A DNA stretch of 64,000 nt, taken from contig BOKM01000001.1 in assembly GCA_016860985.1 (NCBI GenBank), forward strand, positions 317,716 to 381,715. Reading direction: 5' to 3'. Within the stretch, counting starts at the first letter, position 1. Every line of letters starts with the position of its first letter. Source of the DNA: Patescibacteria group bacterium (lineage in GTDB: Bacteria > Patescibacteriota > Dojkabacteria > GCA-002793355). Made by a program: the position numbers and the translations under genes. Positions 23,318 through 62,007 of the stretch are shown here, piece by piece. The notes beneath the pieces are model-generated. The model made no database searches and was not told the DNA's origin. It saw nothing but the letters and a program-made list of their open reading frames with translations.

Positions 23318-24136
23318 ATGTATGAACACGCAATTCCACAGAACATCATGGAGTATGAGTTTGAGCTTTTTGCAGGCTTAACTCTCAAGCAATTTATCTA
23401 CGTCGCAGTATCGGGCGGGTTTGCCTTTGGTTTATACGAATTAAACAGAGCTGGCCTTTTTCCCGCTTTCTTTGCATGGATTACTATTCCAATAATCCTT
23501 TTGGTTGGCGTCACACTTGGCTTAGGCTCGTATCAAAAACGAACAATGGAAGATTGGTTCAATGCATTTGCCAAAGCAAATGCGCTAACCCTTCGCCGAG
23601 TATGGAAAAAAGATACAAAAGCAGTTACTCACGATAATTTTCATGCGACAAAACCGCACTCGCTTCCTTCGTACCTTGCGGTGTATTTTATGAACCAAGA
23701 CGAGTTTACGCGATTAATGCGCAACAAAGGGGCAATAGAGGATTCTCATGAACCTACCACTATCGTACAGCCACTTCTTCACGCAGAGAATATCCCAACC
23801 ATTCAAGAGGTTATTCAACTTACTCAAGCTAATGCCTCAGATTTTGCGGAACCTGGTGTAACGCTTCCAGCAATACCAAACACGATTGCCTTCAAGTTAC
23901 AAGAAGATAATCTTCCAATGGAAGGTGTAGTCGCCTATGTAAAAGATGCCAATATGAGCGTCGTCGGTGCGCTTCGAAGTAACAAAGATGGCATTGTTTA
24001 TTTTAATCAAGGATTTCAGAACGGAGATTACGAAATCGAATTTCAATCGCCAGAAGCTGCAACGTTTCCGAAAGTGAGAGTGCAATTTCAAGGTCTCACT
24101 TACCCACTTATTAATATATCACCAACAGGTTCATAA
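23318..24136 (+). CDS. VirB3/PrgI-like membrane protein with C-terminal extracytoplasmic domain (T4SS-like module)
   Basis: Two adjacent N-terminal TM helices (FIYVAVSGGFAFGLY and FFAWITIPIILLVGVTLGLG). Lies immediately upstream of the VirB4-like genes. Confidence 0.4.
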   Translation: MYEHAIPQNIMEYEFELFAGLTLKQFIYVAVSGGFAFGLYELNRAGLFPAFFAWITIPIILLVGVTLGLGSYQKRTMEDWFNAFAKANALTLRRVWKKDTKAVTHDNFHATKPHSLPSYLAVYFMNQDEFTRLMRNKGAIEDSHEPTTIVQPLLHAENIPTIQEVIQLTQANASDFAEPGVTLPAIPNTIAFKLQEDNLPMEGVVAYVKDANMSVVGALRSNKDGIVYFNQGFQNGDYEIEFQSPEAATFPKVRVQFQGLTYPLINISPTGS

Positions 24137-24138
24137 TT

Positions 24139-24768
24139 ATGGCACTCGGTCCAGGGCAAAGCCCCATAACTCAAGGTACGCAAGATATTCTTGAAGTAGC
24201 GGACATCATGAATGATTTGCTCATTACTCGAAATGGAACCGTTTGTTTAATCTTAAAAACTTCTTCAGTAAACTTTGACCTTTTATCCGAAGACGAGCAA
24301 GACATTAAAATTGCATCCTTCGGTTCTATGGTTAACTCACTCGACTTTCCTCTACAAATTCTTATTGAAACAAAGAAAATTAACATCAGTAAATATGCTG
24401 ACTTTCTAGATACAATGGACACTCCAGACCTTAGCCCCGGACTAAAGCGCCAATTTACGGTTTATAAACAGTTTATAAGAAACCTTATTACAAATAAGGA
24501 AATCCTCGATAAACGTTTTATGATTGTGATTCCCTATAGAACAGGTACCTCTGTTGCGCCAAACGCAACAATCGAGCAAAAACAGAAGCTAATCGAGAGC
24601 GCGACAGGCTATTTGTATCCAAAAAAATATCACGTGATAAAAATGTTAAAAGGCATGTCGCTTGAAGCTGAGCAGATGTCGAACAGCGAAATTGCCAAGT
24701 ATCTTTATTCAGTTTACAACCCAGCGGACTCAATCCGTTTAGATGATTTACCTCAAATATACGTATAA
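24139..24768 (+). CDS. VirB4 N-terminal-domain-like protein (first part of a split VirB4, or separate accessory)
   Basis: LLITRNGTVCLILKTSSVNFDLLSEDEQD resembles the N-terminal region of VirB4/TrbE ATPases. Its stop TAA is followed 1 nt later by the ATG (24770) of the ATPase gene. Confidence 0.45.
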   Translation: MALGPGQSPITQGTQDILEVADIMNDLLITRNGTVCLILKTSSVNFDLLSEDEQDIKIASFGSMVNSLDFPLQILIETKKINISKYADFLDTMDTPDLSPGLKRQFTVYKQFIRNLITNKEILDKRFMIVIPYRTGTSVAPNATIEQKQKLIESATGYLYPKKYHVIKMLKGMSLEAEQMSNSEIAKYLYSVYNPADSIRLDDLPQIYV

Positions 24769-26638
24769 TATGGCACTCCTCGACTTATTCAATAAAAAAA
24801 AACCAACTCAAACTGCAGAACAAGGAGCACAACCTCAAGTTGAGCAGCAGCAATCAGATCCAAACCCTGACTTTAGTATTCAGGACCTGCTTGCTCCGCA
24901 ATATTACGAGATTGATTTTAATCACGTGCAGATTAACAAGCGTTATTACAGAATTCTCATGATTACGGACTTTCCTCGTGTAGTCCGTTCTACATGGCTT
25001 TCTCCACTAGTAAACTTTGAATCTTCACTTGCAATCAGTACGTTCTACTACATCGTTGATTCAGACGAAGTTATTGATAAGCTCAAGAAAAAAATTGCAG
25101 AACTCGAAGCAACTCTTTCGACACAATACGAAAAAGGTGTAGTTCTTGATCCTAAGAGTAAAGTCGCCTATCAAGATGCCCAAGAACTTATCGACAATGT
25201 TGCATCAGGCAAGGAAAAATTCTTTAACATGGGAATGTATATTCGTCTTAATGCAGACGATCTTACAACACTTGAGAATATTTCTAAGAATGTTATCTCG
25301 ACACTCAAGGCAATCGGACTTTCTGCAGTCCCACTTACGCTAAAAATGCACGACGGATTCGATACAACACTTCCATATGCACTCGACAAAATATATCGTG
25401 TTCGAAACATGGATACGACCTCTATTGCAATGACCTTTCCCTTTGTTACGTCGGACCTTACCATGGACAGAGGAATTCTTTACGGCGTCAACATGCACAA
25501 CAACAGTATGGTTATTTTCGATAGGTTTAGCATGCCTAACCTAAACGAAGTAGTTTTCGCGACTTCTGGTGCAGGAAAGAGCTATTTTGTAAAACTTGAA
25601 GCCTTGAGATATTTGCTTACAGGTACGCAAGTGATGATTATCGACCCTGAAAACGAGTATGAAAAACTTGCTAAATCGGTAGATGGCGAATACATTACCT
25701 TTACTCAAGACGAAGGCGCAAAAATTAATCCCTTTGAGTTCCTAAAGTCTTCAAAAGATGGCGTAAGAAACGTCCTTCGCGACAAAGTATTAAGCCTCCA
25801 CTCGTTTATTAAATTACTCCTTGGAGAACTAACAAATGTCGAAGTTTCAATTCTCGACCGCGCCTTTATCCTTACGTATAACGAAAAAGGCATCAACAAC
25901 GACCCTGAAACATGGAATAACAAGCCACCACTGCTCGAAGATTTGTATAAGATTCTCAAAGGTATGGCAGAACCTGAGGCGCGAGCACTTTCAGGCCGGT
26001 TAGAAAAGTATGTTTTTGGAAGTGCTGCCGGCGTCTTTAACCAAGAGACAAATATCGACATCAAGAACAAATTTACAGTATTTAGCATTCGTGACCTTCA
26101 AGATGATCTCCGTCCAATCGCCATGTATATGGTGCTCGATTTCATCTGGACTCGAGTACGTGAAGATATAAGACCAAGAATCCTTGTTGTCGACGAAGCC
26201 TGGACCATGATGCAATACGAAGATTCCGCACGCTTTATTTACGGTATCGCAAAGCGAGGCCGAAAATATTACCTTGGGCTAACGACTATCAGTCAAGATG
26301 TTGATGAATTCTTAACGTCAAAATATGGAAAAGCGGTAGTAACCAACTCAAGCTTGTCGCTTCTACTTAAACAGAGCCCTGCTGCGGTTGATTTAGTCGT
26401 AAAAACCTTTAACCTCTCTTCCGGAGAGCGATCATTCGTATTGAGCGCTAAAACAGGAGAAGGGCTATTCTTTGCCGGAAGAAGCCATGTAGGAGTTTCA
26501 ATTATTGCAAGTAGAGCCGAACATAGACTTATCACCTCAAATCCAAAAGAACTCGCAAAAATGAAATCACAGAGTACAGAATTTTCTGAGGACGATATTT
26601 CAGAGGGAGCCTTAGTTTTTGAGCAAGGAAGTGAATGA
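24743..26638 (+). CDS. VirB4/TraE-like type IV secretion ATPase (probable true start ATG at 24770)
   Basis: Central VirB4 segment RYYRILMITDFPRVVRSTWLSPL; Walker A FATSGAGKSYF; Walker B ILVVDEAWTMM; sensor LTTISQ. Confidence 0.8.
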   Translation: MIYLKYTYNMALLDLFNKKKPTQTAEQGAQPQVEQQQSDPNPDFSIQDLLAPQYYEIDFNHVQINKRYYRILMITDFPRVVRSTWLSPLVNFESSLAISTFYYIVDSDEVIDKLKKKIAELEATLSTQYEKGVVLDPKSKVAYQDAQELIDNVASGKEKFFNMGMYIRLNADDLTTLENISKNVISTLKAIGLSAVPLTLKMHDGFDTTLPYALDKIYRVRNMDTTSIAMTFPFVTSDLTMDRGILYGVNMHNNSMVIFDRFSMPNLNEVVFATSGAGKSYFVKLEALRYLLTGTQVMIIDPENEYEKLAKSVDGEYITFTQDEGAKINPFEFLKSSKDGVRNVLRDKVLSLHSFIKLLLGELTNVEVSILDRAFILTYNEKGINNDPETWNNKPPLLEDLYKILKGMAEPEARALSGRLEKYVFGSAAGVFNQETNIDIKNKFTVFSIRDLQDDLRPIAMYMVLDFIWTRVREDIRPRILVVDEAWTMMQYEDSARFIYGIAKRGRKYYLGLTTISQDVDEFLTSKYGKAVVTNSSLSLLLKQSPAAVDLVVKTFNLSSGERSFVLSAKTGEGLFFAGRSHVGVSIIASRAEHRLITSNPKELAKMKSQSTEFSEDDISEGALVFEQGSE

Positions 26639-36772: not shown

Positions 36773-37315
36773 CTATTTTACCGAGCTCACTTTTGATGCT
36801 GGGATATTAAATCCACCAATTTCAAAAACGTCGACTCCAAGGACATACCCTTTGTTCAAGTCTCCGGTTGCACTATTAAACTCAAGGACCGTTCGGTCAA
36901 TAGCACGCTGAGCTTCACCTTCAGTAGCAAGACTGGCTACAGAAAGCGAAACATTTCCATCACTTTTTTCAAGAATGCCCACCTGAACTTCTTTACCGTC
37001 GATATCCTTTAGCACTGCAGTGGTAACTCGCGCTTGCAGTGTTGGACCATAAAGATTCTCACGAAGTGCACGAACTTGAATCTCACTTTCAATTTGCGGT
37101 GCTTTACCTAATTGACATAATTCTATTATTACTGCGTTAATCAATTTTAAGTCATGTTGCTGTTGAGAATCGAGCTCAAGCTCATTTGCCTTTTGTTGTT
37201 CAGCTATAGAAAGTTTATTCCACATTGAAAGAAATACACCTCGTACTTCTGCAATTTCAGCATTCCTAACCGCTGGCTCATACGACTCAATTCTTTTTGG
37301 TAGCGCTTTAATCAT
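36773..37315 (-). CDS. hypothetical protein (in hrcA position, not HrcA-like)
   Basis: 180 aa, co-oriented and tightly spaced with grpE. No motif. Confidence 0.4.
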   Translation of the reverse strand: MIKALPKRIESYEPAVRNAEIAEVRGVFLSMWNKLSIAEQQKANELELDSQQQHDLKLINAVIIELCQLGKAPQIESEIQVRALRENLYGPTLQARVTTAVLKDIDGKEVQVGILEKSDGNVSLSVASLATEGEAQRAIDRTVLEFNSATGDLNKGYVLGVDVFEIGGFNIPASKVSSVK

Positions 37316-37326
37316 TTGATTTCTAA

Positions 37327-38763
37327 TTAACTTAATTGAGAAAGTAATTTATTTTTTAAAAACAGTGATTTTTCTTCAAATCGCCCTGTGCCCGATTTCA
37401 ATTCAAATCTTATAGAAATTCGCTCAGCCACACCATCTCCTTTCTGGTCTAAAGTTGTTAGCACAACATCAACAGTGTTTCCCACTAATCCGTTGGGACC
37501 TGGGTTCTCAATAAACTCTACGCGATAACCAGGAATTTTATTTCTTCCTTTTTTCTTAGGTCCTCCAACATCCTTAAGCGAACAAATCTGTGCGTCTTCC
37601 TCAGGGTAATGCTCTACAACTGAAACTAAAGATTGAGTATCAGGCGAATTACTAACAATCTTTCGTGGAGTATGCGTAAAAAATGCACTTTTGCGATTTT
37701 CAGGAATCGTTGAGAGAAGTGCATGAAATGCGTCAAGAATATAGCCGTATGGAGTCTGGTCTTCAGCAACATTTCCTTTTTGTGCAACTTGATTACCGAT
37801 TTCGAGTATTCTTCCGTACATCTTGCCCACCTGTTCTTTGTGTGAGTCAACTTTTAATTTTCTAAGTGTATTTCCAGCAAGATATGGTTCGATAATTTTT
37901 CCAGTTTTTGACTTTAGGTCAAACTGAATACTGACCAAGCGAAGACTTGTTCTCTGATATTTCTCGTCCAATCTGTACGCATTTACTTGACACATTCCAT
38001 CGTTATTTCGTTCAATAACTTCATATTCGACAAAGTTATCACGAAATTTATTACGAGAAACACGAGTTTCGCCATCGACTTCATCAAAAGCATCAATAAA
38101 GTTACGCATTTTTACCATGTATCGCAACGCTTCTGCGATATCTGAATAAACAGATACATGCATTCCGGGGCCGTATTTTTTCAAAAACTCTTCTGATTCC
38201 TCTTCAATAGCTTTTCGGTCCAATATATTGGAGACAATACTCATAGTTTTTACATGCGTAGCATGTGGATCGACTTCCTCACTATGAGGTTCCGTTACAA
38301 AAACCACAAGATTGTCACTCGCCGTACTAACTGCATATGCAGTACCTGTTGAGGGAGCAGCTGTCAGCGAAAAGATTTTCACTCCAAATGAATCAACCCC
38401 TCGTTCTAATTCTTGTTCAAGTGATTGACCAGTAACATCATGTGCAACAACTGCATATTCCTTCTCGGTATCTTCGAATATATCAAACCTGTAGTCGTGC
38501 CCCTCAACGTGTGTAAAAAAAGTTGTTCTTCGATATCCCCTCCTTGGAACTTTCTTAGTTAACAGCACTTTTGGACTAATCTCATCGGGAGCAGCTAACA
38601 AGCGGTTAAATCCCTGCCTAAAGGATACGAGCGCAGTTTGAGTAATTGAATCTGTTGCACTTACATGGGTAACGGCCTCTTCTAATGCTAAAAACCTATG
38701 AACAGTCGCAATATCCAACATTGTTTCTCCATCCGAAACATTCGGCTGGGGCATATTTAGCAT
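37327..38763 (-). CDS. hypothetical protein (478 aa, soluble)
   Basis: Long ORF with good coding texture, 11 nt upstream of the 180-aa gene. No recognisable family. Confidence 0.45.
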   Translation of the reverse strand: MLNMPQPNVSDGETMLDIATVHRFLALEEAVTHVSATDSITQTALVSFRQGFNRLLAAPDEISPKVLLTKKVPRRGYRRTTFFTHVEGHDYRFDIFEDTEKEYAVVAHDVTGQSLEQELERGVDSFGVKIFSLTAAPSTGTAYAVSTASDNLVVFVTEPHSEEVDPHATHVKTMSIVSNILDRKAIEEESEEFLKKYGPGMHVSVYSDIAEALRYMVKMRNFIDAFDEVDGETRVSRNKFRDNFVEYEVIERNNDGMCQVNAYRLDEKYQRTSLRLVSIQFDLKSKTGKIIEPYLAGNTLRKLKVDSHKEQVGKMYGRILEIGNQVAQKGNVAEDQTPYGYILDAFHALLSTIPENRKSAFFTHTPRKIVSNSPDTQSLVSVVEHYPEEDAQICSLKDVGGPKKKGRNKIPGYRVEFIENPGPNGLVGNTVDVVLTTLDQKGDGVAERISIRFELKSGTGRFEEKSLFLKNKLLSQLS

Positions 38764-38794
38764 TCAGAATTATACCATTTTAGCCCTATAGCAA

Positions 38795-39889
38795 TCAACT
38801 TTTCTTCTCAAAACCCAGAATTGCTGCTAACTGCTTAACTAATTGAATAACAACGGCAGGTGGCAACAAACTGTAGAATTCTTGTGTTCCATCTTGTACA
38901 GTCCAAAGTTCCTTGTGTATTTCAACTTTCCCCTCTGCGTCATGCGTATAGCGACATCCGGACGTGCATTCATACTCATCTACGTACGAGAGAGCTTTTT
39001 CTTTTTCAAGAGAATTAAACAGCTCAATTTTTGGTATTCCGTATAACTTTCGCGCACGCTTCATTACTTCGATATCGGCAAGCACTCGTGATTTAATCGT
39101 TTCGATCCCTAAATGGTCGCCTTCTTTTGTTACCATACGCCCACCTTTACAATCAGGAAGATCACAAATCAGGTAGTATTCATCTTTTTCTGCATCGTAT
39201 CCAAGTTCTTTTGTTGGAAGGAGCGCAATATTTCGGGAGTTACCACATGTTAAGCAGGTGCGTCGCTGCTTCATTCGCTCGTCTAGTACCGTAATTGGAG
39301 CATTTATAAGAATAAAGACGTCGGGATCATTTCGATAATTAACGAGCTCTCTAAAATAAAGTGAATAAGAGACCTGATCCAGGTTTCGTGGAAAACCATC
39401 AATAAAAAGTGTCTTCTTCTCGTATTTTTCGATTGCTCTACGAAGCATAACCATAACTAACTCTGTAGGGACCAATTTCTCTGTAGTACGCCCGCTTAAG
39501 GCATCAAAAGCTTCATCTAAATGCATATCACCACGATAGTTAGCCTTTGCATATGCGTAAATTTCTGAATCTTTGCCACCTTCTCTATATTCGATATCTG
39601 CGGCACGAACTAAATCTCCCACACTTATATGTGTAAAAAGCTCAGTGCCGAAAATCTCTTTTAACCCATTCATGTACGTACCTTTGCCCGCTTGTTTTGG
39701 CGCAAGCCAGTAGCCAAGAAAAGTCTTTTCACGAAAATAATCACGTAAGTACTCGATTTCTGGGCCAACCTTTTCTTGATAGTATTCCCTTCTTCCCACA
39801 TATGAGTCTAAATCGTAAGTTTTCCCGTTCTTTGTTGAAGATTGCAACCAATCATAAGAGACTGAATATTCGTACCATGGTTCCTTCAT
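38795..39889 (-). CDS. nucleoside-monophosphate (adenylate) kinase-like protein with about 130-aa N-terminal extension and Zn-finger LID
   Basis: P-loop-like AGKGTY; NMP-kinase signature LFIDGFPRNLDQ; LID with four Cys (CLTCGN...CDLPDC). 364 aa, versus about 190-220 for adk. Confidence 0.5.
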   Translation of the reverse strand: MKEPWYEYSVSYDWLQSSTKNGKTYDLDSYVGRREYYQEKVGPEIEYLRDYFREKTFLGYWLAPKQAGKGTYMNGLKEIFGTELFTHISVGDLVRAADIEYREGGKDSEIYAYAKANYRGDMHLDEAFDALSGRTTEKLVPTELVMVMLRRAIEKYEKKTLFIDGFPRNLDQVSYSLYFRELVNYRNDPDVFILINAPITVLDERMKQRRTCLTCGNSRNIALLPTKELGYDAEKDEYYLICDLPDCKGGRMVTKEGDHLGIETIKSRVLADIEVMKRARKLYGIPKIELFNSLEKEKALSYVDEYECTSGCRYTHDAEGKVEIHKELWTVQDGTQEFYSLLPPAVVIQLVKQLAAILGFEKKS

Positions 39890-40033
39890 GTGAAAAAGTG
39901 TGAAATTAAAGGTATTGTAGCACGAGATTTGTGATTCAGAAAAAATGCGTTACAATAACCTCCCTAATAGCCTGTCCCGAGTATAAACTACTCTGGAGAG
40001 TCAATTCGGAAGGATAAAATTAATAGAAAAGGT

Positions 40034-40342
40034 ATGCCCCTACCGGGAGCTTCAGCTGATAGACTTTCACGCTTGCGCGAAATACAACGTAATCGACCGA
40101 TGTTACTTGAACCAATGTCAAATCGAGTACACGAAATACTCGAGGAATCAGAAAGAGTTGTGATTATCGACAATATCTGGATAAGCGCGGATAACACGCA
40201 CGTAATTGCTACAGGGCAAGCGGCACACGGCACAGACAAAGGACATCTACAAGCGATACTATTTGCAGCGGGTGACCCTAAAGATGTAAAAATGACAGCA
40301 GACTCTTTGTTTTTGGTAAGGGTGTACCCAAAGACGCTTTAG
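40034..40342 (+). CDS. hypothetical small protein
   Basis: 102-aa ORF. Competes with an antisense 83-aa ORF. Convergent 4-nt overlap with the receiver gene. Confidence 0.3.
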   Translation: MPLPGASADRLSRLREIQRNRPMLLEPMSNRVHEILEESERVVIIDNIWISADNTHVIATGQAAHGTDKGHLQAILFAAGDPKDVKMTADSLFLVRVYPKTL

Positions 40343-40779
40343 TGTGCAATTTCTTTGATAGCTGGAGGAGCAAAACGCTCAATAAACTCTCTTGTGACTT
40401 CTTCCAAACCACCTTCTTTTGTTGAACCTGCACGTGAGATACGAACTTCTAATACATCCTTCTCCATTAAATTGCGATACAAGTATTTTTCTACAAGAAT
40501 TCGCATTCGAGATTCCCAGTTTAGCTCATCATGTTGAGTATTCACCAATACGGGGATTTTATTCTCTACACAGACGGCTATTACACCAGCGACATGTTCT
40601 TCGTTCTCTAGGTCAAAATCAACGAGTGCCATATTAATAGCAATCGAATTTTCTGCAACCATTCGAGATGCATCATCAACCGTTTGAGGTAGAAAGACTG
40701 TATTACCAGCACTTAAAAGAAGTTTTGCCGCAAGCATTGCTTCTTGTTTATTTGTATCACACACTAATATCGTTGCCAT
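40339..40779 (-). CDS. stand-alone CheY-like receiver-domain protein
   Basis: 146 aa. Acidic pocket ILVCDTN, phospho-acceptor-like VDFDL, conserved Lys region. No output domain. Confidence 0.5.
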   Translation of the reverse strand: MATILVCDTNKQEAMLAAKLLLSAGNTVFLPQTVDDASRMVAENSIAINMALVDFDLENEEHVAGVIAVCVENKIPVLVNTQHDELNWESRMRILVEKYLYRNLMEKDVLEVRISRAGSTKEGGLEEVTREFIERFAPPAIKEIAH

Positions 40780-40839
40780 ACTCTTTATTTATGCAGGGCA
40801 GCATAATATTAGATTTTCGCCGAAGCAAAAAACAAAATA

Positions 40840-40913
40840 TGCACCCAGAGGGACTCGAACCCCCAACCCTCAGTTCCGAAGACTGATGCTCTATCCAATT
40901 GAGCTATGGATGC
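40840..40913 (-). tRNA. tRNA-Arg (anticodon TCG)
   Basis: Hand-folded from the reverse complement: acceptor GCATCCA/TGGGTGC (one G-U), D arm GCTC/GAGC, anticodon stem TCAGT/ACTGA with loop CTTCGGA, T loop TTCGAGT. 74 nt, no CCA. Confidence 0.85.
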
Positions 40914-41014
40914 AATACGGAATTATACTACAAAATCACTTTTTCTTGAATTTCCATAAAAACGCAGACTTCGGGATTGAAGACGAAATTACCTTGTTTG
41001 ATGTATACTGATAC

Positions 41015-45226: not shown

Positions 45227-46543
45227 TTAATACTTATACTCTTCTCTCTTAAACGGTCCCTCTATTTGCACGCTCAAATATTTTGCCTGTTCCGGAGTTA
45301 GTGTCGTAAGTTTTTTTGTAATTTCAGGAAAAGAGTAACGAGCAACATCTTCATCTACCTTTCGTGGAATTTGATATATCCCCACCTTCTCAAACTCCTC
45401 CGGATGCTCTTCCACATAGAGTAAAGAAAGTATATGTGTTGTATAGGTTGTACCCATTACCGTTGGCGGATGTCCATACCCTGCATACAGGTTCAGAACA
45501 TAGCCATCACATAAAATATAGAACTGCTTGCCGTTGTAGGTATAACGCACGCAACTTTCGTTTAATCTTACCGCCTCTATACTCTTCTGATTTGAAACCC
45601 ATGCCGCGTTAACTTCTTGATTATGCTCACTCATATTCATAAGTACTGCATTATCCTTCACATCTAGGAAATCCTGCTGATCAATGGTATTGATACAACC
45701 AGTAGCAGTAACAACAATATCGCTATTTCGCAATGCAGTCTTTTTGTCTTCGATTCGATAACCTTCCATATGTGCTTGCATCGCCATTATTGGGTCAATT
45801 TCAACTATTGAAACGTGGGCCCCCATACCTCTTAACGCTTGTGCTGCGCCTTTTCCGACTTCTCCAAAGCCGAAGACAACGGCTTCGGTTCCTGCAATCT
45901 GAATATTAAGAGAACGTTGTATTCCTTCTAACATTGATTCTCTACTTCCATAAATATTGTCAAACTTTGATTTTGTAACACATCCATTGATATCAACAAC
46001 TCTGAAGTATAGTCCCGATTGATTGATAAACTCGCTAAAGTATTTATTTACACCACAGGTCGTTTGCTCAAATATTACCTTTATTTCAGGTAATATCTCT
46101 GGGTAGTTTTTATGGAGAAACATTGGGAGCTCAGCTCCATCGCTAATAATATAGCGCGGGGCAATAACTTTACCGTTACCGTCTCTAAACTGTGCTAGAT
46201 GATATGCTTCATCGTAATCTTCCTCAGTCATATGGCGATAGCCATACACAGAAATACCGTTACTCACAAGGTATGCCGCAGCCGCATCAATAGTGTAGTG
46301 TAAACTGTCAGTGACCCAACGCAAATCTGCACCAAGATCTTTTAGTAACATCGCGAAGTTTGCACATTCGTAGGTAATCACCCCTGCACCAAGGATTTTT
46401 ATCCCTTTTAATGGCTGTGTACCCATATACTTTTCGCGCACAACCCTTAATCCCGGCATTTGCTTTAAGGCTTCTTCACAATAAAGCTTTCCAGATGCTG
46501 CTAGAGAAATATCTTTAATCCAGTACCCTTCGGTCTTATCCAT
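45227..46543 (-). CDS. ahcY: adenosylhomocysteinase (S-adenosyl-L-homocysteine hydrolase)
   Basis: NAD-binding VVFGFGEVGKGAAQALRGMGAHVSIVEIDPIMAMQAHMEGY and downstream DIVVTATGC, closely matching SAHH. Confidence 0.9.
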   Translation of the reverse strand: MDKTEGYWIKDISLAASGKLYCEEALKQMPGLRVVREKYMGTQPLKGIKILGAGVITYECANFAMLLKDLGADLRWVTDSLHYTIDAAAAYLVSNGISVYGYRHMTEEDYDEAYHLAQFRDGNGKVIAPRYIISDGAELPMFLHKNYPEILPEIKVIFEQTTCGVNKYFSEFINQSGLYFRVVDINGCVTKSKFDNIYGSRESMLEGIQRSLNIQIAGTEAVVFGFGEVGKGAAQALRGMGAHVSIVEIDPIMAMQAHMEGYRIEDKKTALRNSDIVVTATGCINTIDQQDFLDVKDNAVLMNMSEHNQEVNAAWVSNQKSIEAVRLNESCVRYTYNGKQFYILCDGYVLNLYAGYGHPPTVMGTTYTTHILSLLYVEEHPEEFEKVGIYQIPRKVDEDVARYSFPEITKKLTTLTPEQAKYLSVQIEGPFKREEYKY

Positions 46544-48307: not shown

Positions 48308-48904
48308 CTAAAGATAGTCAATAATCATCCTAGACCAATATGTGAGCTCATCTCGATGTTCCTTCAAATACTCTATCGTCATCCAACCAACAGTCTCTAA
48401 ACCTTCTTCCCTAACTTTGGCCGAATTATTACTAACTTCAAATACATACACGACACCGACATGAACACTGTTTACAGGATTATCATCGAGATAGATTACC
48501 CCTAGAAAGGTCTTTTTTATCACGTCAAAGTCTGTTGTCACCTCTTCACGCAATTCACGTTGCAGTGCTTGTTGGATACTGTCCTCTGTCGAATTTTTGT
48601 CGAGTTCAAACTCAGAAACATGACCCCCTAAAGGTAAAGGACATAATGAATTTAAGCGTTTTTCGTTTCTGTTCACTTGTTTGTGCAGGTAGTAAGTCTC
48701 GCCAAATTTTAATACGACTTGAGGGATGATTTGAAGGTATTCTCGGTTTTCTTCCAAATCTGCTCGCAGTTTGAATTCAGACTCAGTGAGCAACAACTTA
48801 TAAATCTCGTCAAGATTTTCCTGCTGAAAGCCTTCCCAAGAACCTGACCTAAAGAAAGTATCCTTTTTTATACACAAAATTTCTTTATCAAATTTTCCTG
48901 CCAT
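48308..48904 (-). CDS. NUDIX hydrolase
   Basis: Nudix box GGHVSEFELDKNSTEDSIQQALQRELREEV (Gx5Ex7REUxEE). Confidence 0.7.
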   Translation of the reverse strand: MAGKFDKEILCIKKDTFFRSGSWEGFQQENLDEIYKLLLTESEFKLRADLEENREYLQIIPQVVLKFGETYYLHKQVNRNEKRLNSLCPLPLGGHVSEFELDKNSTEDSIQQALQRELREEVTTDFDVIKKTFLGVIYLDDNPVNSVHVGVVYVFEVSNNSAKVREEGLETVGWMTIEYLKEHRDELTYWSRMIIDYL

Positions 48905-49403: not shown

Positions 49404-50069
49404 CTAGGCTGCTGCTTCTGCACCTTCTGCTGGAGCTGCTTCTGCACCTTCTGCTGTTGCTGTAGTATCGGTTCTTAAGAATGCTTCAACCTTTTGGAGT
49501 GGTCTGATGGTTACAACAGTGAGTGTTCGGTCTTTCTCACTTGCGAGTTTGATTTTCTCAATTCCAGGAAGTTCAGAAACAAGTACGCGAGCACCAACAT
49601 CTGTAAGCTTCGAAATATCAATAACGATCTTTGAAACGATATTTTCACTGTTTGCAGTAATTCGAAGCTCTGGAAGGTTGGTAATAAGAACACCAAGGTT
49701 GTTCTTTACAGCTGGCGAGACACCTTCGGTTACAATTGGAACTCGTACGGTTACGTGGCTCTTTGGTGTAAGCTCTGTGAGTGAGAAGGCTTCTACTTTA
49801 TTGTTGAGTGGGTTCACATACAATTCTGAAACGACAGTTGTGTAAGAATCTTTCTCGTCAACAATAAGTTTGATTACTTCTGATCCAGGTGCTTTTACCA
49901 AAGCGAGCAATGCTGTTTGATCTGCCTGTACCAATACTGTGTCTGCACCACTTCTGCTAACACTACCTGGGGCAATACTCTGAGCGAGTAACCCTCTGTT
50001 GCTTTTTCCGAGTACAGTTCTTGTTTGTGCTTTAAGTTCAATCATAATGTTTCTTCGTAGGTTTACCAC
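49404..50069 (-). CDS. rplY: 50S ribosomal protein L25 / general stress protein Ctc, with Ala/Glu-rich C-terminal tail
   Basis: N-terminal LKAQTRTVLGKSNRGLL, central beta-barrel, VIDISKLTDVGARVLVSELPGIEKIK typical of L25/Ctc. Confidence 0.6.
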   Translation of the reverse strand: MVNLRRNIMIELKAQTRTVLGKSNRGLLAQSIAPGSVSRSGADTVLVQADQTALLALVKAPGSEVIKLIVDEKDSYTTVVSELYVNPLNNKVEAFSLTELTPKSHVTVRVPIVTEGVSPAVKNNLGVLITNLPELRITANSENIVSKIVIDISKLTDVGARVLVSELPGIEKIKLASEKDRTLTVVTIRPLQKVEAFLRTDTTATAEGAEAAPAEGAEAAA

Positions 50070-50533
50070 TTAAATTGTGCAAAGGCTTTGTTTGCTTCTG
50101 CCATCTTTTCTACCATTTCACGCTTCTTAACTGCTGCACCTTCATTCTTGTAGCCAGCAATAAGCTCTTCTGCCAAGAATTTGTGAACAGGCTTTCCCTG
50201 CTTTTCTCGAACAACAGTAACAATCCACTTCAATGCAAGTGCAAGACCTCTGTGTTCGGTTACTGGAACAGGTACCTGATAGTTTGCACCACCGATACGT
50301 CGTGTTCTGACTTCGAGCTTTGGCATTACGTTTGCAATAACTTGGTCAATAAGATCTTTTACTTCAATCTTTAATGTTCCAGCTGCTGATTCTAGCGCTT
50401 CATACACAATCTTTGTTGAAGTTGCCTTTTGACCATCTTGCATCATGTAATTGATGAATTTGGTAACAGTTGCAGAACCGTACTTTGGATCTGGTTGGGC
50501 TTTTCTTGCGAGTGATACTTTCTTTCCTCTCAT
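50063..50533 (-). CDS. rpsG: 30S ribosomal protein S7
   Basis: MRGKKVSLARKAQPDPKYGS...FINYMMQDGQKATS. Confidence 0.95.
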   Translation of the reverse strand: MRGKKVSLARKAQPDPKYGSATVTKFINYMMQDGQKATSTKIVYEALESAAGTLKIEVKDLIDQVIANVMPKLEVRTRRIGGANYQVPVPVTEHRGLALALKWIVTVVREKQGKPVHKFLAEELIAGYKNEGAAVKKREMVEKMAEANKAFAQFKW

Positions 50534-50548
50534 ATTCTCTTCAATAAA

Positions 50549-50971
50549 CTAAGATTCTGCTCTGTCTGATTTTTTACCGTAGAGTGATCGGCCTTGCTTT
50601 CGGTCCTTTACGCCTTGAGTATCAAAGGTACCACGTACGATTGTGTACTTAACACCTGGCAAGTCAGGCCTTCTTCCGCCTCTAATCATAACGACAGAGT
50701 GTTCCTGAAGGTTGTGACCTTCTCCCGGAATATAAGCAATGACACGCGCACCATTTGAAAGACGAATCTTTGCAACTTTTCGTTGCGCTGAGTTTGGCTT
50801 TCTTGGCGTCTGAATGTACACCTTAAGACAAACACCCTTTTTAAAAGGTGCCTTTGTTTTAACAACTTTATTTTCAAGTTTGTTAAACGAGAACGCCAGG
50901 GCTGGACGCTTAGATTTTTTAACGCGCTTCTGGGATCGACCCTTTCGCACGAGTTGGTTAATTGTTGGCAT
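50549..50971 (-). CDS. rpsL: 30S ribosomal protein S12
   Basis: [12 protein letters not shown]...PKKPNSA; start overlaps the rpoC stop by 1 nt (TAATG). Confidence 0.95.
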
Positions 50972-53900
50972 TAGACCGATAGTTCTTCAAGCTTATCTAT
51001 CTCGCTGATTATAGCCCTTTTTCCCACTGGAATCAAGCGACCGATAATGACATTCTCCTTCAAACCACGGAGGAAGTCAGTTCGACCGACAACTGCAGCT
51101 TCAGAAAGGACCTTTACCTGTTCCTGGAACGACATCGCAGCGAGGATACTTTCTGCGTTCAAGGAAATGACGGTAACACCGAGCAATCTGGTGACATACG
51201 TCATCGGTTTCTTCTCTTGCTTTTCTAATTGCTCATTATGGAAGTCAGCCAAGAATCGGTTTACAAAGGTACCTCTTGTGTACCCTGTGCCACCTGCATC
51301 CACAATCTTTGCAAGTTTTGTCATTTGACGGGTAATAATTTCAAGATGAATATCTCGAAGGTTTACTCCATAGTCAAGGAAGACTCTCTGACACTCGTCG
51401 AGCACATATTTTTGTGCTGCGTAGAGGCCTTTGTAGTCTGACAATACCTTTGGATCAACGCTTCCACTCGTCAATTGCTGACCTCTTTCGACCGTATCTC
51501 CGTCGTGTACTAACACTTCGCCGTAAGATGGGATTGTAAGTGTTTCTTGCGCTTTTGTTGACCCAACCACATAAATGGCATTACCATTGATTTGGATTTC
51601 TCCATCAAATGGCGATTTAACTTCTTTGCCATTACTCATGGTAAAGATAACATCACCAAGTGATACTTCTTTTTTATCTTCTACATGCACTGTGTCATTC
51701 TCTTGCACAACGTACCCTTTTTTCTGTTGACGTTCACCGGCGATAATAATGTTCTTTTCGGTTACTTGTACTTTTCCAGAGATTGAAGCAAGAAGTGCGG
51801 GGAACTTTGGTTCACGTGCTTCGATGAGCTCAACAATACGTGGAATACCCGACGTAATGTCAGAACCTACACCACCTGCGTGGAAGGTTCGGAGCGTCAT
51901 CTGTGTCATAGGCTCAGAAATTGACTGAGCTGCGATAACACCGACCGCTTTTCCGAGTTCAACTGTTTTATAAAGTCCGAAGTCGTAGCCGTAACATTTT
52001 GCACACATGCCGACTGGTGCTTTACAAAGCATTGGTGATCGAACCCACACCTCGTTAACCTTTGCATCTTCGATTTCTTTTGCAAGTTCAACAGTAATCA
52101 ATTCGCCTGTTTTTGCAAGTACAGTCTTCTTTTTATCATCTGCAACGACATCTTGTGTTAAGAATCGACCACTAATTCGCTTTTCAAACGACATGTCTCG
52201 AATATCTGAGCGGCTGATAACATGACCGTGCCCTTCGTAACCACAATCTTCCATTCTGACGATTACATCTTGCGATACATCGGTAAGCTTACGAGTCATA
52301 TACCCTGATTGTGCTGTTTTAAGCGCAGTATCGACTGCACCTTTACGAGCTCCACGTGCAGAAACAAAGTACTCATAGGAGTTCAAACCTTCTGCGTAGT
52401 TACCCAAAATTGGGAACTGAACATAGTTACCCATAGGATCAGTAACAACACCCTGCATGGCGAGGATCTGCGCTGCCTGAGATTTGTCTCCGTTTGCACC
52501 TGCAGTAACCTGCAACTTAAGTGGGTTTTCGTCTTTCAATTCTGACCACACCAAGTTGGAGAGTCTTTCTGTTACATCTTTCCAGAGTTTAACAACTGCT
52601 CTTCCCTTTTCTTTTGCATCCAACATACCCATAAGGTATTGTTCTTGAATTGCGAGTTCTTTGTCCTTTCCTTCATCGATGATTGCTTTCTTCTCTTTAG
52701 AGGTTACAAGGTCAGTTTTTGACATGGTAAAGCCGGAGAGAGTTGCGTATTTGAAGGCAAGTCGCTTTGCTTCGTCAAGGAATTCAATTGCCTCTTCGAG
52801 TGTGTGAGAGATAACAATTTCTTGCAAGATATTGTTTCCTGCTTTCTTTGTCATAATCTCGTTTACAAAGCGGAAGTCTTTTGGTAGCAATTCGTTGAAG
52901 ATCAATCGACCAGCGCTGGTTACAACGGTGCCAATCTTTTCGTCAATAAAGACTCTGACTGGTTGTCGTAACTCGAGTTCTCCCATGTAGTGAGCGCGGA
53001 TTGCATCGTATCGAGTTGCGTACACTGGGTAATCTGTCTCGTTTTCTTTTTCGAGTTCAACATCAAAGCTTGTAAGGTTGTACAACCCAAGTACCATGTC
53101 CTTAGCAAAGGAGATGATTGGTGTACCGTCTGCAACCTTAAGCAAGTTATAACGTGACAACATCTTGTCTTTTGTTTCTTCCAAGGCTTCATTGCTGAGT
53201 ACCAAGAAGACTGACATCTGGTCACCGTCGAAGTCTGCGTTATAGCCAGGGCCAACCAACTGGTTAATACGGATTGCGCTTCCTTCTACCAAGATTGGTT
53301 TAAAGGCTTGAATGTTGTATTTGTGAAGCGTTGGAGGTCGGTTCAAAAGTACTGTTCGAGTACTGATGACTTCTTCGAGAATATCCCACAAACGGCTGTC
53401 ATATGCCTCGATAAGGTCTTTTGCTTCTTTGATAGTTGCTGCAATACCCTTTGCAATCATTTTGTGAACAACAAATGGTTTGAACATCTCTAAAGCCAAA
53501 AGTTTCGGAAGACCACACTGCTCAAGCGACATGTTTGTATCTGGAATAATAACGGCACGACCAGAGTAGTCGACACGCTTTCCAAGCAAGTTTCTTCGGA
53601 ATCGACCTTTTTTACCACGAAGCCCTTCTGTAAGTGACTTATAAGGAATGCCCATTCGGTTAAGAACTGGCTTGTTAAAGCGGTGCTGGTTATCAATCAA
53701 CGCATCAAACGCTTCTTGAAGCATTCGCTTTTCGTTTCGGAGGATAATATCTGGTGCACCAATTTCCATCAATTCTTTCAAACGATTGTTTCGGTTAATG
53801 ACACGTCGGTACAAATCGTTTACGTCAGAGATTGCAAAACGACCACCGGCTAACGCGACGATTGGTCGAAGATCTGCAGGAAGAACGGGAACAACTTTAA

Positions 53901-54849
53901 GAACTAGCCACTGTGGGTTAAGACCGTTTCGAAGGAAGCCTTCGACAAGTTTTAGTCTTCGCTCAACCTGAATTCGTGCTGCACCTTTTGTGGTGTTGTA
54001 CAAATCTTCGAGTTGCTGCTTTAACGCGGCAAGGTCAAGGTCTCCGAGTAATTTCTCGATTGCTTCTGCACCCATTCCAACCGTAAAGAATTTGGTTCCG
54101 AGTTGGATAAGTTCTCGATAGCTCTCTTCAGACACTACTGATTTGTAGTGTAATTCTTGAACTGAAACTTTGAGCGCTTCGTATTTCTTGGTGATTTCAT
54201 CTTTTGCATCAACAACTTCCTTTTTGAGAAGTGCATTCTGCTTTGAAATCATGTCTGCATCTTTTTCGAGTTCTGCTCTATCTGCATCTGCGAGTTTTTT
54301 ACTCTCAAGTTTCTTACGTGCATCTGCAAGTTTTGCACCAAGCTCTTGAAGACGTGTTGCGTATTCGTTATCAACTCGCTCAAGTTCTGACTTAAGAATT
54401 TCTTCAACCTCTTTAAGGGCTGCTTCTTGCTTTTCTCGATCAATTTCGGTGACGACATAACGAATGTAGTAAATGACAGAAACAAGCTTCTTTGAAGGAA
54501 TGTTCAAGAGGATTGCAAGTTTTGCTGGAACACCGTAGGCATACCACACGTGAACGACTGGAACGGCGAGCTTAATATGCCCCATTCTTTCTCGGCGGAC
54601 TTTCGCTGGTGCGATTTCAACACCACACTTGTCACATACAATACCCTTATACTTCTTCTTTCTGTACTTTCCACAGTAACACTCGTAATCTTTGATTGGA
54701 CCAAAGATTCTTTCACACATTAACCCACCTGGTTCTGCTTTTAAACTTCGGTAGTTAATTGTTTCTGCGGTTTGGACTTCACCGTATGACCAGGAGAGCA
54801 TATCTTCTGGTGACGCAAGAAGCAATTTAATTGCTGAAAAGTCTTGCAT
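50971..54849 (-). CDS. rpoC: DNA-directed RNA polymerase subunit beta'
   Basis: Zn-finger [20 protein letters not shown], catalytic NADFDGDQM, trigger-loop and jaw regions. 1292 aa. GGAGGAGGAG Shine-Dalgarno-like run upstream. Confidence 0.97.
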
Positions 54850-54851
54850 GT

Positions 54852-57800
54852 TTACTCCTCCTCCTTCATGTTAACTTCTTCTTCAGGCAACTCGTCTGCT
54901 ACGAGTACTTCCTTGTTTTCTGACATTGGAACATCATCGTCGTCTGCTTGCGCATCTTCTCGAATCAATTCTTCTGCAGCTTCTTCTCGTTCTCCTTTTA
55001 AGAGTTCGACTTTAATACCAAGAGAATTCAATTCTTTAACCAAGACATGGAACGACTCAGGAATATTGACCATCTTGATTGGATCTCCTTGAATGATGGA
55101 CTTGTAAGCTTGGGTTCTTCCTCGAATATCGTCTGACTTAATAGTCAAGATTTCTTGCAAGGTATAAGGAACTCCGTGTGCTTGCAATGCCCATACTTCC
55201 ATTTCTCCGAATCGCATACCACCGAGTTGAGCTTTACCACCAACTGGTTGTTGTGTGACAACAGAGTAAGGTCCTGTAGATCGTGCGTGCATCTTGTCTG
55301 CTGCAATGTGCTTTAAGCGGATGAAGTATCGCCAACCGACTGCAACTTTGTTTTGCAATGGTTCGCCAGTTCGTCCGTCGTAAAGAACCTGCTTTTCTAA
55401 TTTTTCGACACCAACCTTTTCGAGCAATTTTTCAAATTGCTCTTCGTCTAAATCTTCAAAGTTTGGAACTTCGAGCATTTCGCCTGCTTCCTTTGCAAGT
55501 GTTGAGTAGTACATTTGGTACAAAATACCCATGTTCATACGCTTAACCAACAACGGAGTCATAACGACATCTACAGGTGTACCATCGGCCAAGTACGGCA
55601 TATCTTCGACTGGAAGAATTGCAGATACTGTACCTTTGTCTCCATAGAATCCGGAGAATTTATCACCGTAGTCTACTCGCTTAAGCTCAGAAACCCATAC
55701 TTTAACTCTTCTCAATACGCCAGCTGGAAGTTTATACCCATCTTCTCGTGAGAGAATCTGTGTTTTTACGACAATACCTTCTGAGCCGTATGGCATTCGA
55801 AGTGAGTTATTCTTAACTTCTTTTGCTGATTCACCGAAGACAGCGTGTAAGAGTGCTTCTTCTGGAGAAAGCTGCTTTTCCGCTTTTTGCGAGATAATAC
55901 CTGCCAAAATGTCTCCACCTCGAGCAACGCTACCCGTTCGAACAATACCATCTGCGGTAAGGTTTCGAAGGAGTTTGTAGTTCAAACCTGGAATGTCTGA
56001 GGTAAGAATTTCTGGACCGGTTTTTGTCTCTCGAAGATCTTGCGTGTAAAGTTTCAATTGCACTGTGCTGAACATATCGTTTTGGATCATTCGCTCAGAT
56101 ACGACGAAACCGTCATCGTAGTTATAACCTTCGTAGGAGAGAACTGCGACCAATACGTTTCTACCAAGAGAAAGTTCACCTTGATCCATGCTTGGACCAT
56201 CGACCAGAAGGTCACCTTTTGTTACTTTTTCTCCAGGGCTTACCAATACTTTTTGAGTCATGACCGTGTTATCGTTGGTTCTAAAGAAGTTCTGTAATCG
56301 ATACTCCTTCTTTTCACCGTCTTTGTACTTCACAATCACATAGTTCGCGTCTGCATATTCAACAACACCATCGTGCTCTGCATATAATGCCATACCACTT
56401 TGTCGAGCAATTTCTTTTTCGACACCGGTTGCGACATATGGCGCCTCTGGGAATACCAATGGAAGCGCCTGCCTCTGCATGTTGCTACCCATCATTGTAC
56501 GGTATGAGTTGGTTCTATCTGCGAATGGAATAAGTGCCAAACCAAGTGAACCAATCTGCCAACCGTGAACATCTACATACTGAATTTTTTCTGAAGACTC
56601 TAAATGATAATCACCATCGTGTCGCGCAGTGATGATACCTGGCAAGTAGTTGCCGTACTCATCGTGTGGCGCACTATACATTGCGATGTATTTACCCTTT
56701 TCGTCGTGATAGCTAAAGTATTCAACTTCGTCGGTAAGGAATGGATACACTGCGATTACTTCATTCTTTGCCTTTGCAATTTCTTTTGCTATTTTTTCAT
56801 CGATAAAGGTACCTTTTGCAATTGTTTTCTTTCCGATTTCTAGATCTTCTCTCAAAATCTTATTGATCAATGCTTTTTCGGTGTTCTTTACTTCACTCTG
56901 TACTTTTCTAAACGGAGCTTCGATAAAACCATATTTGTTTAATCGTGCATATACAGAGAAGTGAGTGACCAAACCTGCGTTAATACCTTCTGGTGATGTA
57001 ACAGGACAAATTCGTGAATAGTGTGAAAAGTGAACGTCACGAACTGAAAAGCCTGCGTTCTTTGTTTGAAGACCACCTGGACCCTTTGCGGTTAATCGTC
57101 GGAGTTCTTCGATTTGACCGAAGATATTTTGCTGTTCCATGAATTTTGACAACTGAGACATGCTGAAGAAAGACTCCAACTGTGCAGAGATTGTCTTTGT
57201 ATTCATAAGGCTCGCCGGCATGACACCCTTTTCGTTTCCTAGTCGGCTCATACGATCCTTCACATTTCTTTCAAAACGAGTCATTGCATCGTTTGCAACC
57301 TCGAAAAGAATTTCACCAACACTCTTTACGCGTCGGTTCATCAAGCTATCGACATCGTCTACTGATGCCTTTCCTTCGTTTACTAATACAAGTTGTCGAA
57401 GAATTGCAATAAGGTCTTTCGTGTAGAGTTTTGGCTTCTTAAAGCTTGAGCCGAGTTTTTGATTCAATTGATAACGACCGACTGGACCGAGCGAGAATCG
57501 TCGTGAATCAAAGAAGAATCCTCTAACGTAACGGTTTGCGCGATCATAGGTTGCAACTTCGTTTGGACGAAGTTTTGCATAAATATCCATGACTGCTTCT
57601 TCTTTTGTTGTCGTGCGATCGTGTTCGAGCGTTTGTTTAATATACTTACCATTTGGATCAACATTCTTGAACAAATCGATAATTTGCTGATTGCTATAAC
57701 CCTTTAAGGCTCGAAGTAAGGTGGTTACTAGAATCTTTACACGCTGTCGGATAAGTCGAATAGTGACAACATTCTTCTTGTTAACGTCGAATAAATACCA

Positions 57801-59268: not shown

Positions 59269-59284
59269 CAGGCCAAAACAACTA

Positions 59285-59749
59285 CTAGTCCATTCCTAAC
59301 AATTCGCGGACACCACTTGAAACATTAGAGAGTACATTACCGCCATTTCTGTATAATTCAGAAACAATCGCCACACTCAACAAGTCATTATCTTTTGGTG
59401 ATTGATAACCAACCTTTCTTTTTAGATTAGTCATCAATTGTTCTTCGTCTACACCATCACCAAATATACTGTTACGTCGAAGAGGTTCAGCACATACACT
59501 ATCCGCAGCTACACTATCCTGAACTGCGATTTTTAGCATATTCAATTTCCCAACATGCTTTAGTGCCTCTTGTACTTCCAAGGTTTGCAAACCAAATATC
59601 GCCCCCGAATCACGCTCTTTGAGTTTGGCAATTCGCTCAAGTTCAACTCCAAGAGCTCCTAAAGAAGCCACACCTTCTCTAAATTTTACTTCTCCAAGCG
59701 CTCTAAACGAGCTTTCCTCTGTGGGTTCACTTAAATGTGGTGTTGTCAT
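59285..59749 (-). CDS. hypothetical protein
   Basis: 154 aa, helical; no motif. Confidence 0.35.
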   Translation of the reverse strand: MTTPHLSEPTEESSFRALGEVKFREGVASLGALGVELERIAKLKERDSGAIFGLQTLEVQEALKHVGKLNMLKIAVQDSVAADSVCAEPLRRNSIFGDGVDEEQLMTNLKRKVGYQSPKDNDLLSVAIVSELYRNGGNVLSNVSSGVRELLGMD

Positions 59750-59773
59750 ATCGAATTATACAATACCGAACCA

Positions 59774-61968: not shown

Positions 61969-62007
61969 ACTCTATTATAATTGCTTAGTTAAAAATAGCA
62001 ACGAACG

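Follow-up and report, generated by a model that had tools for sequence, protein, structure and literature searches.

An enlarged adenylate-kinase-fold family of Patescibacteria with a probable role in nucleotide salvage

The 64,000-nucleotide stretch of DNA analyzed here—the window—comes from a Patescibacteria genome of the Dojkabacteria lineage (contig BOKM01000001.1, positions 317,716 to 381,715). On its minus strand, a single open reading frame (ORF) with an ATG start (38795..39889) encodes a protein of 364 aa with the motifs of an adenylate kinase (Adk). The question raised by this locus is whether the gene encodes the housekeeping Adk of the organism in an unusually long form or a kinase with a task of its own. 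The answer that we consider probable, with moderate confidence, is a catalytically active phosphotransferase of the adenylate-kinase fold, a Patescibacteria-specific paralogue that works in nucleotide salvage beside the canonical Adk. This reading builds on the fold, the conservation, the separate clade, the co-occurrence with adk in five relatives, and the gene neighborhoods; activity, substrates, and role are its deduced part.

The 364-aa protein is a genuine, very divergent member of the adenylate-kinase fold, because it passes the Pfam ADK model and misses the curated adk models, whereas PDB, AlphaFold2, and Foldseek all lead to Adk. It reaches 46.8 bits on Pfam ADK (PF00406; gathering cut-off 26.8, E = 4.4e-12) and 41.7 bits on AAA_17. 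The scores on the curated models stay below the cut-offs: 63.4 bits on TIGR01351, the model of housekeeping adk (cut-off 168), 52.4 bits on the best PRK00279-type adk equivalog of NCBIfam (cut-off 256), and 42.6 bits on the UMP-CMP kinase model TIGR01359 (cut-off 207.6). The top sequence matches in the PDB are long-type adenylate kinases with a zinc-binding LID domain (Zn-LID), at E = 9e-9 only. The AlphaFold2 model, for which 56 homologues served as input, has a predicted local distance difference test score (pLDDT) of 89.4 and a predicted template-modeling score (pTM) of 0.88. It features the three-domain architecture of the fold—CORE, nucleoside monophosphate (NMP)-binding, and LID domain—and all 50 of the best Foldseek matches in the PDB are Adk. 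A reading made from the sequence alone had placed the protein in the NMP-kinase family by the motifs GKGT (residues 68–71) and DGFPRNLDQ (residues 164–172) and by four cysteines; all of these are present, and the Pfam score above cut-off bears the assignment out.

The conservation of the active site was followed in an alignment of 118 homologues to the Adk of E. coli and B. subtilis and in a second alignment of 56 sequences; the roles of the catalytic residues are taken from the published Adk literature in E. coli numbering. Overall, the catalytic equivalents are invariant or conserved to at least 98%, among them K69 (E. coli K13) and D92 (D33). In the P-loop, K65, G68, and K69 are invariant in 118 of 118 family sequences, and T71 is nearly so. 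The P-loop of the family follows the pattern [GA][PK]Kx[AS]GKGT[YF] and lacks the second Gly; the canonical GxPGxGKGT does not fit, but the generic Walker A pattern [AG]x4GK still does. The atypical P-loop that the sequence-only reading had pointed out, A63-P-K-Q-A-G-K-G-T71-Y72, is a deviation of the whole family (118 sequences) and not of this one protein. In the NMP-binding domain, G91 and D92 never vary, and 116 of 118 sequences have R95; D164, G165, F166, R168, D171, and Q172 are invariant in both alignments. The LID carries equivalents of E. coli R119 (R205), R123 (R209), D159 (D258), and R167 (R268), all of them invariant. Two positions depart from E. coli Adk: R156 is replaced by an invariant Lys (K255) and D158 by Gly (G257). 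The four LID cysteines that had been noticed, C212, C215, C242, and C247, are spaced C-x2-C-x26-C-x4-C and hold up as invariant across the homologues of both alignments.

Because nearly the whole catalytic set of Adk is retained, the family enzyme is most likely an active phosphotransferase. The additional basic residues K65, R119, R180, and R186, which are invariant, together with inserts near both nucleotide sites, suggest that its specificity is altered. A reading of the substrate from the residues of the AMP site was dropped: E. coli T31 is replaced by Val but Q92 is kept, and this pattern does not separate acceptors.

The family is large and confined, as far as can be judged, to Patescibacteria (candidate phyla radiation, CPR). 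A word-indexed search yields 1054 proteins at E ≤ 1e-3; the family, whose members have about 360 aa, comprises more than 1000 clusters at 90% identity. The best 120 listed homologues measure 276–404 aa (118 of them 340–380 aa) at 44–95% identity; those that bear a name are annotated as 'nucleoside monophosphate kinase' or as 'adenylate kinase family enzyme' and come from Dojkabacteria, Paceibacteria, Minisyncoccia, and 'Patescibacteria group'. Among the GTDB representative genomes, at least 555 stretches (species) encode a relative. The best 80 of these stretches nearly all bear the label of metagenome-assembled genomes of Patescibacteria, and the few labels of Gammaproteobacteria or Pacearchaeota look like mislabels. 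When 1.84 billion representatives were searched exhaustively with a profile, 69 matches reached E ≤ 1e-30, and profile searching also brings up a second tier of relatives (tier 2) of 320–346 aa, which are Patescibacteria too where named. Three apparent fusions (P0166, P0210, and P0219), e.g., a DNA methylase/HNH-like N terminus joined to a family fragment, were set aside, as they appear to be chimeric assemblies.

Canonical Adk stands apart from this family. The family profile gives the best Adk of canonical length 64.5 bits, versus about 92–589 bits for full-length members, and a profile–profile comparison with the short Adk of CPR reaches a probability of 96% at 18% identity over 131 columns. 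A neighbor-joining tree was built from 215 shared columns with 300 bootstraps and comprises both tiers of the family, CPR short Adk, and long Adk. Here, the family is recovered in 299 of 300 bootstraps, CPR short Adk in 296, and long Adk in 285, while the grouping of the family with long Adk is weak (187/300). Phylogenetic placement, which the sequence-only reading had proposed, hence sets the family apart as a clade distinct from both the short Adk of CPR and long Zn-LID Adk. No description of the family was found in the literature searched. We regard it as an old and deep Patescibacteria-specific clade of the adenylate-kinase fold, which is architecturally distinct, generically auto-annotated, and uncharacterized.

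Five relatives (L044, L056, L057, L062, and L074) carry, on the same contig and less than 10 kb from the family gene, a canonical adk of about 195 aa in the order secY-adk-map. This adk features the P-loop GxxGxGKGTQ, the motif DGYPR, and a short RGRxDD LID. Because the canonical adk co-occurs there, the family gene of these five relatives is a paralogue and not the housekeeping Adk. The length of 364 aa also lies outside the range of housekeeping Adk (approximately 180–225 aa). As had been remarked from the sequence, the gene is located outside the secY/ribosomal-protein operon: a tRNA-Arg and a receiver-like ORF lie upstream, uncharacterized ORFs and grpE-dnaK downstream. The earlier proposal of a specialized rather than a housekeeping kinase stands for the family—by the separate clade, by the score of 63 versus the adk cut-off of 168, and by the five relatives with a canonical adk—but this evidence does not reach the genome of the window itself.

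Compared with Adk, the protein is about 150 aa longer, as had been stated, but not by one N-terminal extension of 130–150 aa; the surplus is distributed over five additions. Since the P-loop begins at residue 63, the N-terminal extension comprises 57 aa only. The remaining approximately 90 aa are internal and form four insertions, as judged by the alignment to E. coli and B. subtilis Adk and by the model. The structure of the N terminus, for which a prediction had been advised, comes out as ordered with a pLDDT of 90–97, and R33, Y36, G42, E44, and F57 are conserved to at least 95% among the 118 homologues; for both reasons, the extension is real coding sequence and not a mis-called start. The first internal insertion lies in the NMP-binding domain and contains Y118-R119-G120, which is invariant in 118 of 118 sequences. 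The second one, of about 6 aa, follows DGFPRNLDQ, and the third one, of about 13 aa, lies within the LID. The fourth one is β-rich and takes the position of the loop that contacts the ATP base in canonical Adk. The features of the protein and of its surroundings are collected in the table.

Table. Features of the kinase gene and of its neighborhood in the window (window positions; residues count from the ATG start)
Feature	Coordinates	Strand	Remarks
Complete gene, adenylate-kinase-fold protein	38795..39889	-	Stop codon 38795-38797
N-terminal extension, residues 1-57	39719..39889	-	Ordered coil, then long helix 30-54 leading into β1; lacking in the E. coli and B. subtilis enzymes
P-loop APKQAGKGT, residues 63-71	39677..39703	-	K65 for the canonical Pro, Q66 for the canonical Gly, K69 catalytic Lys
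NMP-binding motif ISVGDLVRAA, residues 88-97	39599..39628	-	Aligns with E. coli ISTGDMLRAA; R95 = E. coli R36
22-aa insertion in the NMP-binding domain, residues 112-133	39491..39556	-	No counterpart in E. coli or B. subtilis Adk
DGFPRNLDQ, residues 164-172	39374..39400	-	D164, R168, Q172 = E. coli D84, R88, Q92
Enlarged LID, residues 205-268	39086..39277	-	~13 residues longer than the B. subtilis Zn-LID to which it aligns
β-rich insert of ~49 aa, residues 293-341	38867..39013	-	Between last core strand and C-terminal helix
C-terminal core helix, residues 343-357	38819..38863	-	Helix in the model; Q353 and SLLP..VV.QL.KQL conserved (56-sequence alignment)
Receiver-like 146-aa ORF and tRNA-Arg(TCG)	40339..40914	-	Weak receiver-domain similarity; upstream of the kinase
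478-aa ORF and 180-aa ORF	37327..38763; 36773..37315	-	Packed between the kinase and grpE-dnaK; gaps 31, 11, 46, 17 bp

In the proposed mechanism, the nucleoside triphosphate (NTP) donor would sit on the P-loop (K69) beneath a LID stabilized by a metal in the Cys4 site (R205, R209, K255, D258, and R268), as the conserved residues suggest. The acceptor nucleotide would be bound in the NMP-binding domain by R95, R168, and Q172, and the terminal phosphate would be transferred in line, as in Adk. K65, the YRG insert, the expanded LID, and the β-rich insert where the donor base would lie presumably shift the range of accepted nucleotides. Judged by gene context, the enzyme may act as a salvage kinase, likely of broad specificity, that re-phosphorylates nucleotides derived from scavenged nucleic acids; where ndk is missing, the step from nucleoside diphosphate (NDP) to NTP could possibly be covered by it as well. 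De novo synthesis of nucleotides is missing in most CPR bacteria, which are regarded as DNA scavengers (PMC6744442), and one cultivated strain of Minisyncoccota reportedly lives on the RNA of its host and lacks Gmk (bioRxiv 10.64898/2026.06.21.733656).

The gene context leads to the first rival explanation. It holds that the family enzyme is a functional analogue of nucleoside diphosphate kinase (NDK), which converts mainly (d)NDP to (d)NTP (d denoting the deoxy forms), and that ndk and the family gene displace each other; we consider this possible but lean against it. The evidence comes from a Nomurabacteria-type block of the order secY - adk2 (minus strand) - adk - pyrH - map - DUF8128 ... 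β-CASP nuclease, in which DUF8128 is TraG-like (approximately 922 aa) and the nuclease is a metallo-β-lactamase (MBL) protein of 454 aa. The slot between DUF8128 and the nuclease is occupied by ndk in six of six genomes (L094, L095, L096, L098, L100—with L101 being the same organism—and L102), which were taken from the canonical-adk matches solely for their long contigs and of which about 20 kb each were seen. In L044, L057, L062, and L074, the same slot is occupied by the family kinase. None of these 10 genomes, compared locally, has both genes in the slot, which makes it a strict either/or position between flanks of 62–88% identity. L044, for instance, reads DUF8128 - kinase - CYTH - HAD - transmembrane protein - β-CASP and L098 reads DUF8128 - NDK - CYTH - HIT - β-CASP; the two are 86% identical in DUF8128, 82% in SecY, and 68% in CYTH. 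L044 resembles the ndk-type genomes more closely than it does the remaining loci with the kinase. Among kinase-type loci whose DUF8128 has diverged to 63% identity, the kinase is still 73–78% identical. Moreover, the ndk of the slot is of two unrelated types, 31–33% identical (L094 and L095 versus L096, L098, L100, and L102); two types in one slot of close genomes point to repeated replacement there. The alternation resembles in-place displacement between functionally related genes and hints that the family may take on an NDK-like step.

Further observations can be set on either side of an NDK-like function. Within 10 kb, ndk is absent from the 80 family loci and from the window, which together make up the neighborhood set, and the invariant basic residues K65 and R119 could hold an additional phosphate. 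Adk itself is said, in work from 1996 by Lu and Inouye, to have a side NDK activity and to be able to compensate for the loss of ndk in E. coli. In reduced genomes, ndk is dispensable or can be absent, its activity being covered by other kinases (PMC6609329). However, zero ndk in 80 loci of about 15 kb each is near the chance expectation of approximately 1.5, and the alternation was seen in local windows of about 10 kb in 10 genomes, the kinase-type loci of which were sampled with a bias, having been found via a kinase search. One tier-2 member (P0156, locus L092) lies two genes from ndk, and the residues of the AMP site are conserved as in monophosphate kinases. Finally, because the slot is part of a general nucleotide-metabolism cluster (adk, adk2, pyrH, NUDIX, CYTH, and HIT), it could host two kinases that are not equivalent.

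The adk2 gene of this block in Paceibacteria is itself a divergent gene of the ADK fold, of about 200 aa, with the P-loop GMIASGKET and without the Asp of DGFPR. In L044 (4092..4694, minus strand), L094, L096, L098, L100, and L102, it is placed between secY and adk but runs in the opposite direction; in L095, this position is taken by a Cytidylate_kin2-type gene.

A second rival starts from the nuclease genes next to the kinase and assumes a dedicated (d)NMP kinase that is coupled to DNA uptake via ComEC and phosphorylates deoxynucleotides from degraded imported or extracellular DNA; we judge it unlikely. ORFs of the neighborhood set were clustered, and 74 loci have an upstream ORF. In 40 of these 74, a stand-alone gene of a ComEC-type MBL nuclease lies directly upstream on the same strand, at a distance of −38 to 260 bp and in several cases with a 4-bp overlap. 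The MBL protein, of about 289 aa, features an N-terminal hydrophobic anchor and the ComEC MBL domain (TIGR00361 positions 438–663, 132.9 bits). The kinases of the 40 loci are 47–94% identical in pairs. The gene of the ComEC channel (DUF4131 + Competence) is found directly upstream of the MBL gene in about 11 loci only; elsewhere, this position is held by thiI, mnmA, or an SDR gene. Because this further-upstream gene varies between loci, the pair of MBL and kinase gene has been kept as a unit through rearrangements, also where the channel gene is not adjacent. The comE operon of B. subtilis, too, includes a nucleotide enzyme, the dCMP deaminase ComEB. The scavenging of DNA for nucleotides ascribed to CPR is a further point in favor. 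However, the MBL domain of canonical ComEC is thought to work outside the membrane and the MBL protein of CPR carries its N-terminal hydrophobic anchor; hence, its products would have no direct access to a kinase in the cytoplasm. Tier-2 members, Nomurabacteria-type loci, and the Dojkabacteria-like lineage to which the window belongs do not show the adjacency. The pair also lies within a syntenic run (M50-rpsL-rpsG) and may simply be inherited.

In these CPR genomes, ComEC is split into a gene with DUF4131 and Competence domains and a separate gene of about 289 aa with anchor and MBL domain, which are often not adjacent (L050 9002..9871; L025 7601..9076); ComEC is reported for 86% of CPR genomes, with the MBL domain not fused (PMC6744442). 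In nine loci, a β-CASP nuclease gene lies two to five genes downstream of the kinase. The neighbors of tier-2 members are a split PPDK-like (AMP-forming) enzyme, a sugar-nucleotidyltransferase, or a nearby ndk, and these contexts fit nucleotide metabolism without singling out one particular step. At L088 (7034..9347), the tier-2 member overlaps the split PPDK-like gene by 8 bp; a gene with a PEP-utilizers mobile domain is followed by a PPDK_N gene, and the PEP/pyruvate-binding domain was detected in neither of the two.

Both contexts can be combined into one scenario, which we put forward tentatively and hold to be somewhat unlikely in its entirety: an ancestral enzyme of Patescibacteria that finishes salvage, i.e., a broad kinase of the adenylate-kinase fold that raises (d)NMP and (d)NDP derived from ComEC-type or β-CASP nucleases to the triphosphate. 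It would be interchangeable with NDK and would have been displaced by ndk at least twice—given the two ndk types—in some Paceibacteria.

That the gene is an enlarged, lineage-specific form of the housekeeping Adk in this Dojkabacteria-like genome is quite unlikely, even though it is the sole adk-like sequence of the 64 kb window. A tblastn search of the window with E. coli and B. subtilis Adk returned the kinase gene itself only, and the genes called in the flanks, about 10 kb on either side of the window, include neither secY nor a member of the ADK family. The catalytic residues of Adk and Q172, the residue of AMP specificity, are conserved. A profile of five CPR short Adk gave matches of Paceibacteria type only, and a search with P0265, the best canonical match to the family profile, gave Aquificae-like Adk. 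Neither search brought up a canonical adk of Dojkabacteria or a match on the 1,051,512-bp contig of the window, which is a limitation of the search and not evidence of absence. However, the region inspected for adk comprises about 84 kb of 1,051 kb, i.e., only about 8% of the genome; orthologues of 44–50% identity co-exist with an adk of the spc operon in five genomes; the scores are far under every curated adk cut-off; and the family forms a clade of its own.

That the enzyme stands in for an absent monophosphate kinase, for instance GMP kinase, is highly doubtful. Two points could speak for it: the Minisyncoccota strain that is reported to lack Gmk but to carry several unassigned NMP-kinase-like genes (bioRxiv 10.64898/2026.06.21.733656), and a tier-2 member that overlaps a mannose-1-phosphate guanylyltransferase-like gene, whose product would use GTP. 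However, the acceptor site bears no guanine-specific sign. An origin from phage or anti-phage defence was rejected: PHROG has no match for the kinase protein, PADLOC one match of 15.7 bits at the level of the P-loop, and IMG/VR one partial match at 26% identity and no convincing viral copy.

The reading as a salvage paralogue beside Adk remains the preferred one, and the following points weigh against it. Q172 and R95 are AMP-site residues of true adenylate kinases, and a plain AMP/dAMP kinase is compatible with them. The ComEC, β-CASP, and DUF8128 contexts are all missing in the window and in its Dojkabacteria-like relatives L001–L006, and hence the argument from context is borrowed from other classes. 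Because gene order is strongly conserved within the classes of CPR, the adjacency signal may in part be inherited synteny and not a functional link. The small and local basis of the alternation with ndk, the ndk near P0156, and the mixed content of the cluster around the slot count here as well. In the genome of the window, a canonical adk was not found within the approximately 84 kb inspected.

In the window, the receiver-like ORF and tRNA-Arg lie upstream of the kinase, and two uncharacterized ORFs followed by grpE-dnaK lie downstream; the order kinase, variable ORF(s), grpE, dnaK is conserved between the window and L001–L006. Bona fide response-regulator receiver genes occur at the same upstream position in L039, L045, L049, L054, and L078. 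The 478-aa and the 180-aa ORF have no significant match in Pfam, NCBIfam, PHROG, or PADLOC. They were rejected as conserved partners, and they look like fast-evolving lineage-specific genes, because homologues are absent even in loci whose kinase is 57–79% identical. A scan of positions 36000–41000 for promoters and terminators found sites no more numerous than in shuffled sequence.

Further away in the window, a PrgI-family protein and a VirB4/TraG-like ATPase (23318..26638, plus strand) are type IV secretion components as described for Patescibacteria. On the minus strand, rpoB-rpoC-rpsL-rpsG are followed by L25/Ctc (49404..58301) with neither fusA nor tuf in the cluster, and two DsbA/thioredoxin-like proteins and a VKOR homologue (58321..62904) lie just upstream of rpoB. 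The rpoB cluster is followed by genes for a NUDIX protein (48308..48904) and for AdoHcy hydrolase (45227..46543).

A large part of bacterial diversity belongs to Patescibacteria, most of which cannot make nucleotides and presumably live on DNA or RNA that they scavenge. The enzymes that return released nucleotides to (d)NTPs in these organisms are assigned by automatic annotation only. The operon-like link to the ComEC nuclease and the alternation with ndk make the family a concrete candidate for this missing step of nucleotide metabolism in CPR. If it is NDK-like, metabolic reconstructions that count it as a second 'adenylate kinase' need correcting; if it is interchangeable with NDK, this would be a non-orthologous gene displacement between an enzyme of the adenylate-kinase fold and NDK. 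For the enzymology of adenylate kinases, the family offers natural experiments: a Lys at the Pro position of the P-loop, the exchange of Arg156 to Lys, and a 49-residue insert at the donor-base loop.

Of the known systems, the long-type Adk with Cys4 LID (B. subtilis; D. gigas, 3l0p/2xb4) ranks first among the PDB sequence matches. The family shares with it four LID cysteines, DGFPR...Q, the arginines of the LID and of the NMP site, and the P-loop Lys. Compared with long-type Adk, it features several differences: the extra length of about 150 aa from five additions, at a core identity of only about 25%; a P-loop that carries an invariant Lys in place of the canonical Pro and lacks the second Gly; Lys for R156 and Gly for D158; a Cys spacing of C-x2-C-x26-C-x4-C versus C-x2-C-x16-C-x2-C at the putative metal site; and a gene outside the spc operon, next to which five relatives have a canonical adk on the same contig. 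The short Adk of Patescibacteria (secY-adk-map; e.g., L044 4777..5379) belongs to the same superfamily, occurs in the same organisms, and bears the same NCBI name, 'nucleoside monophosphate kinase'. However, it is about 195 aa long, has the short RGRxDD LID, GxxGxGKGTQ, and DGYPR, and forms a separate clade. The UMP/CMP kinases of the type of yeast Ura6 (1ukz) differ by a short LID without Cys4 and by the absence of all insertions of the family. NDK (PF00334) is found as the alternative in the same slot of close Paceibacteria genomes and, like the family enzyme, moves phosphate between nucleotides. In fold and mechanism—a ping-pong via phospho-histidine—it is unrelated, with no sequence similarity, and the equivalence of the two is a proposal from synteny.

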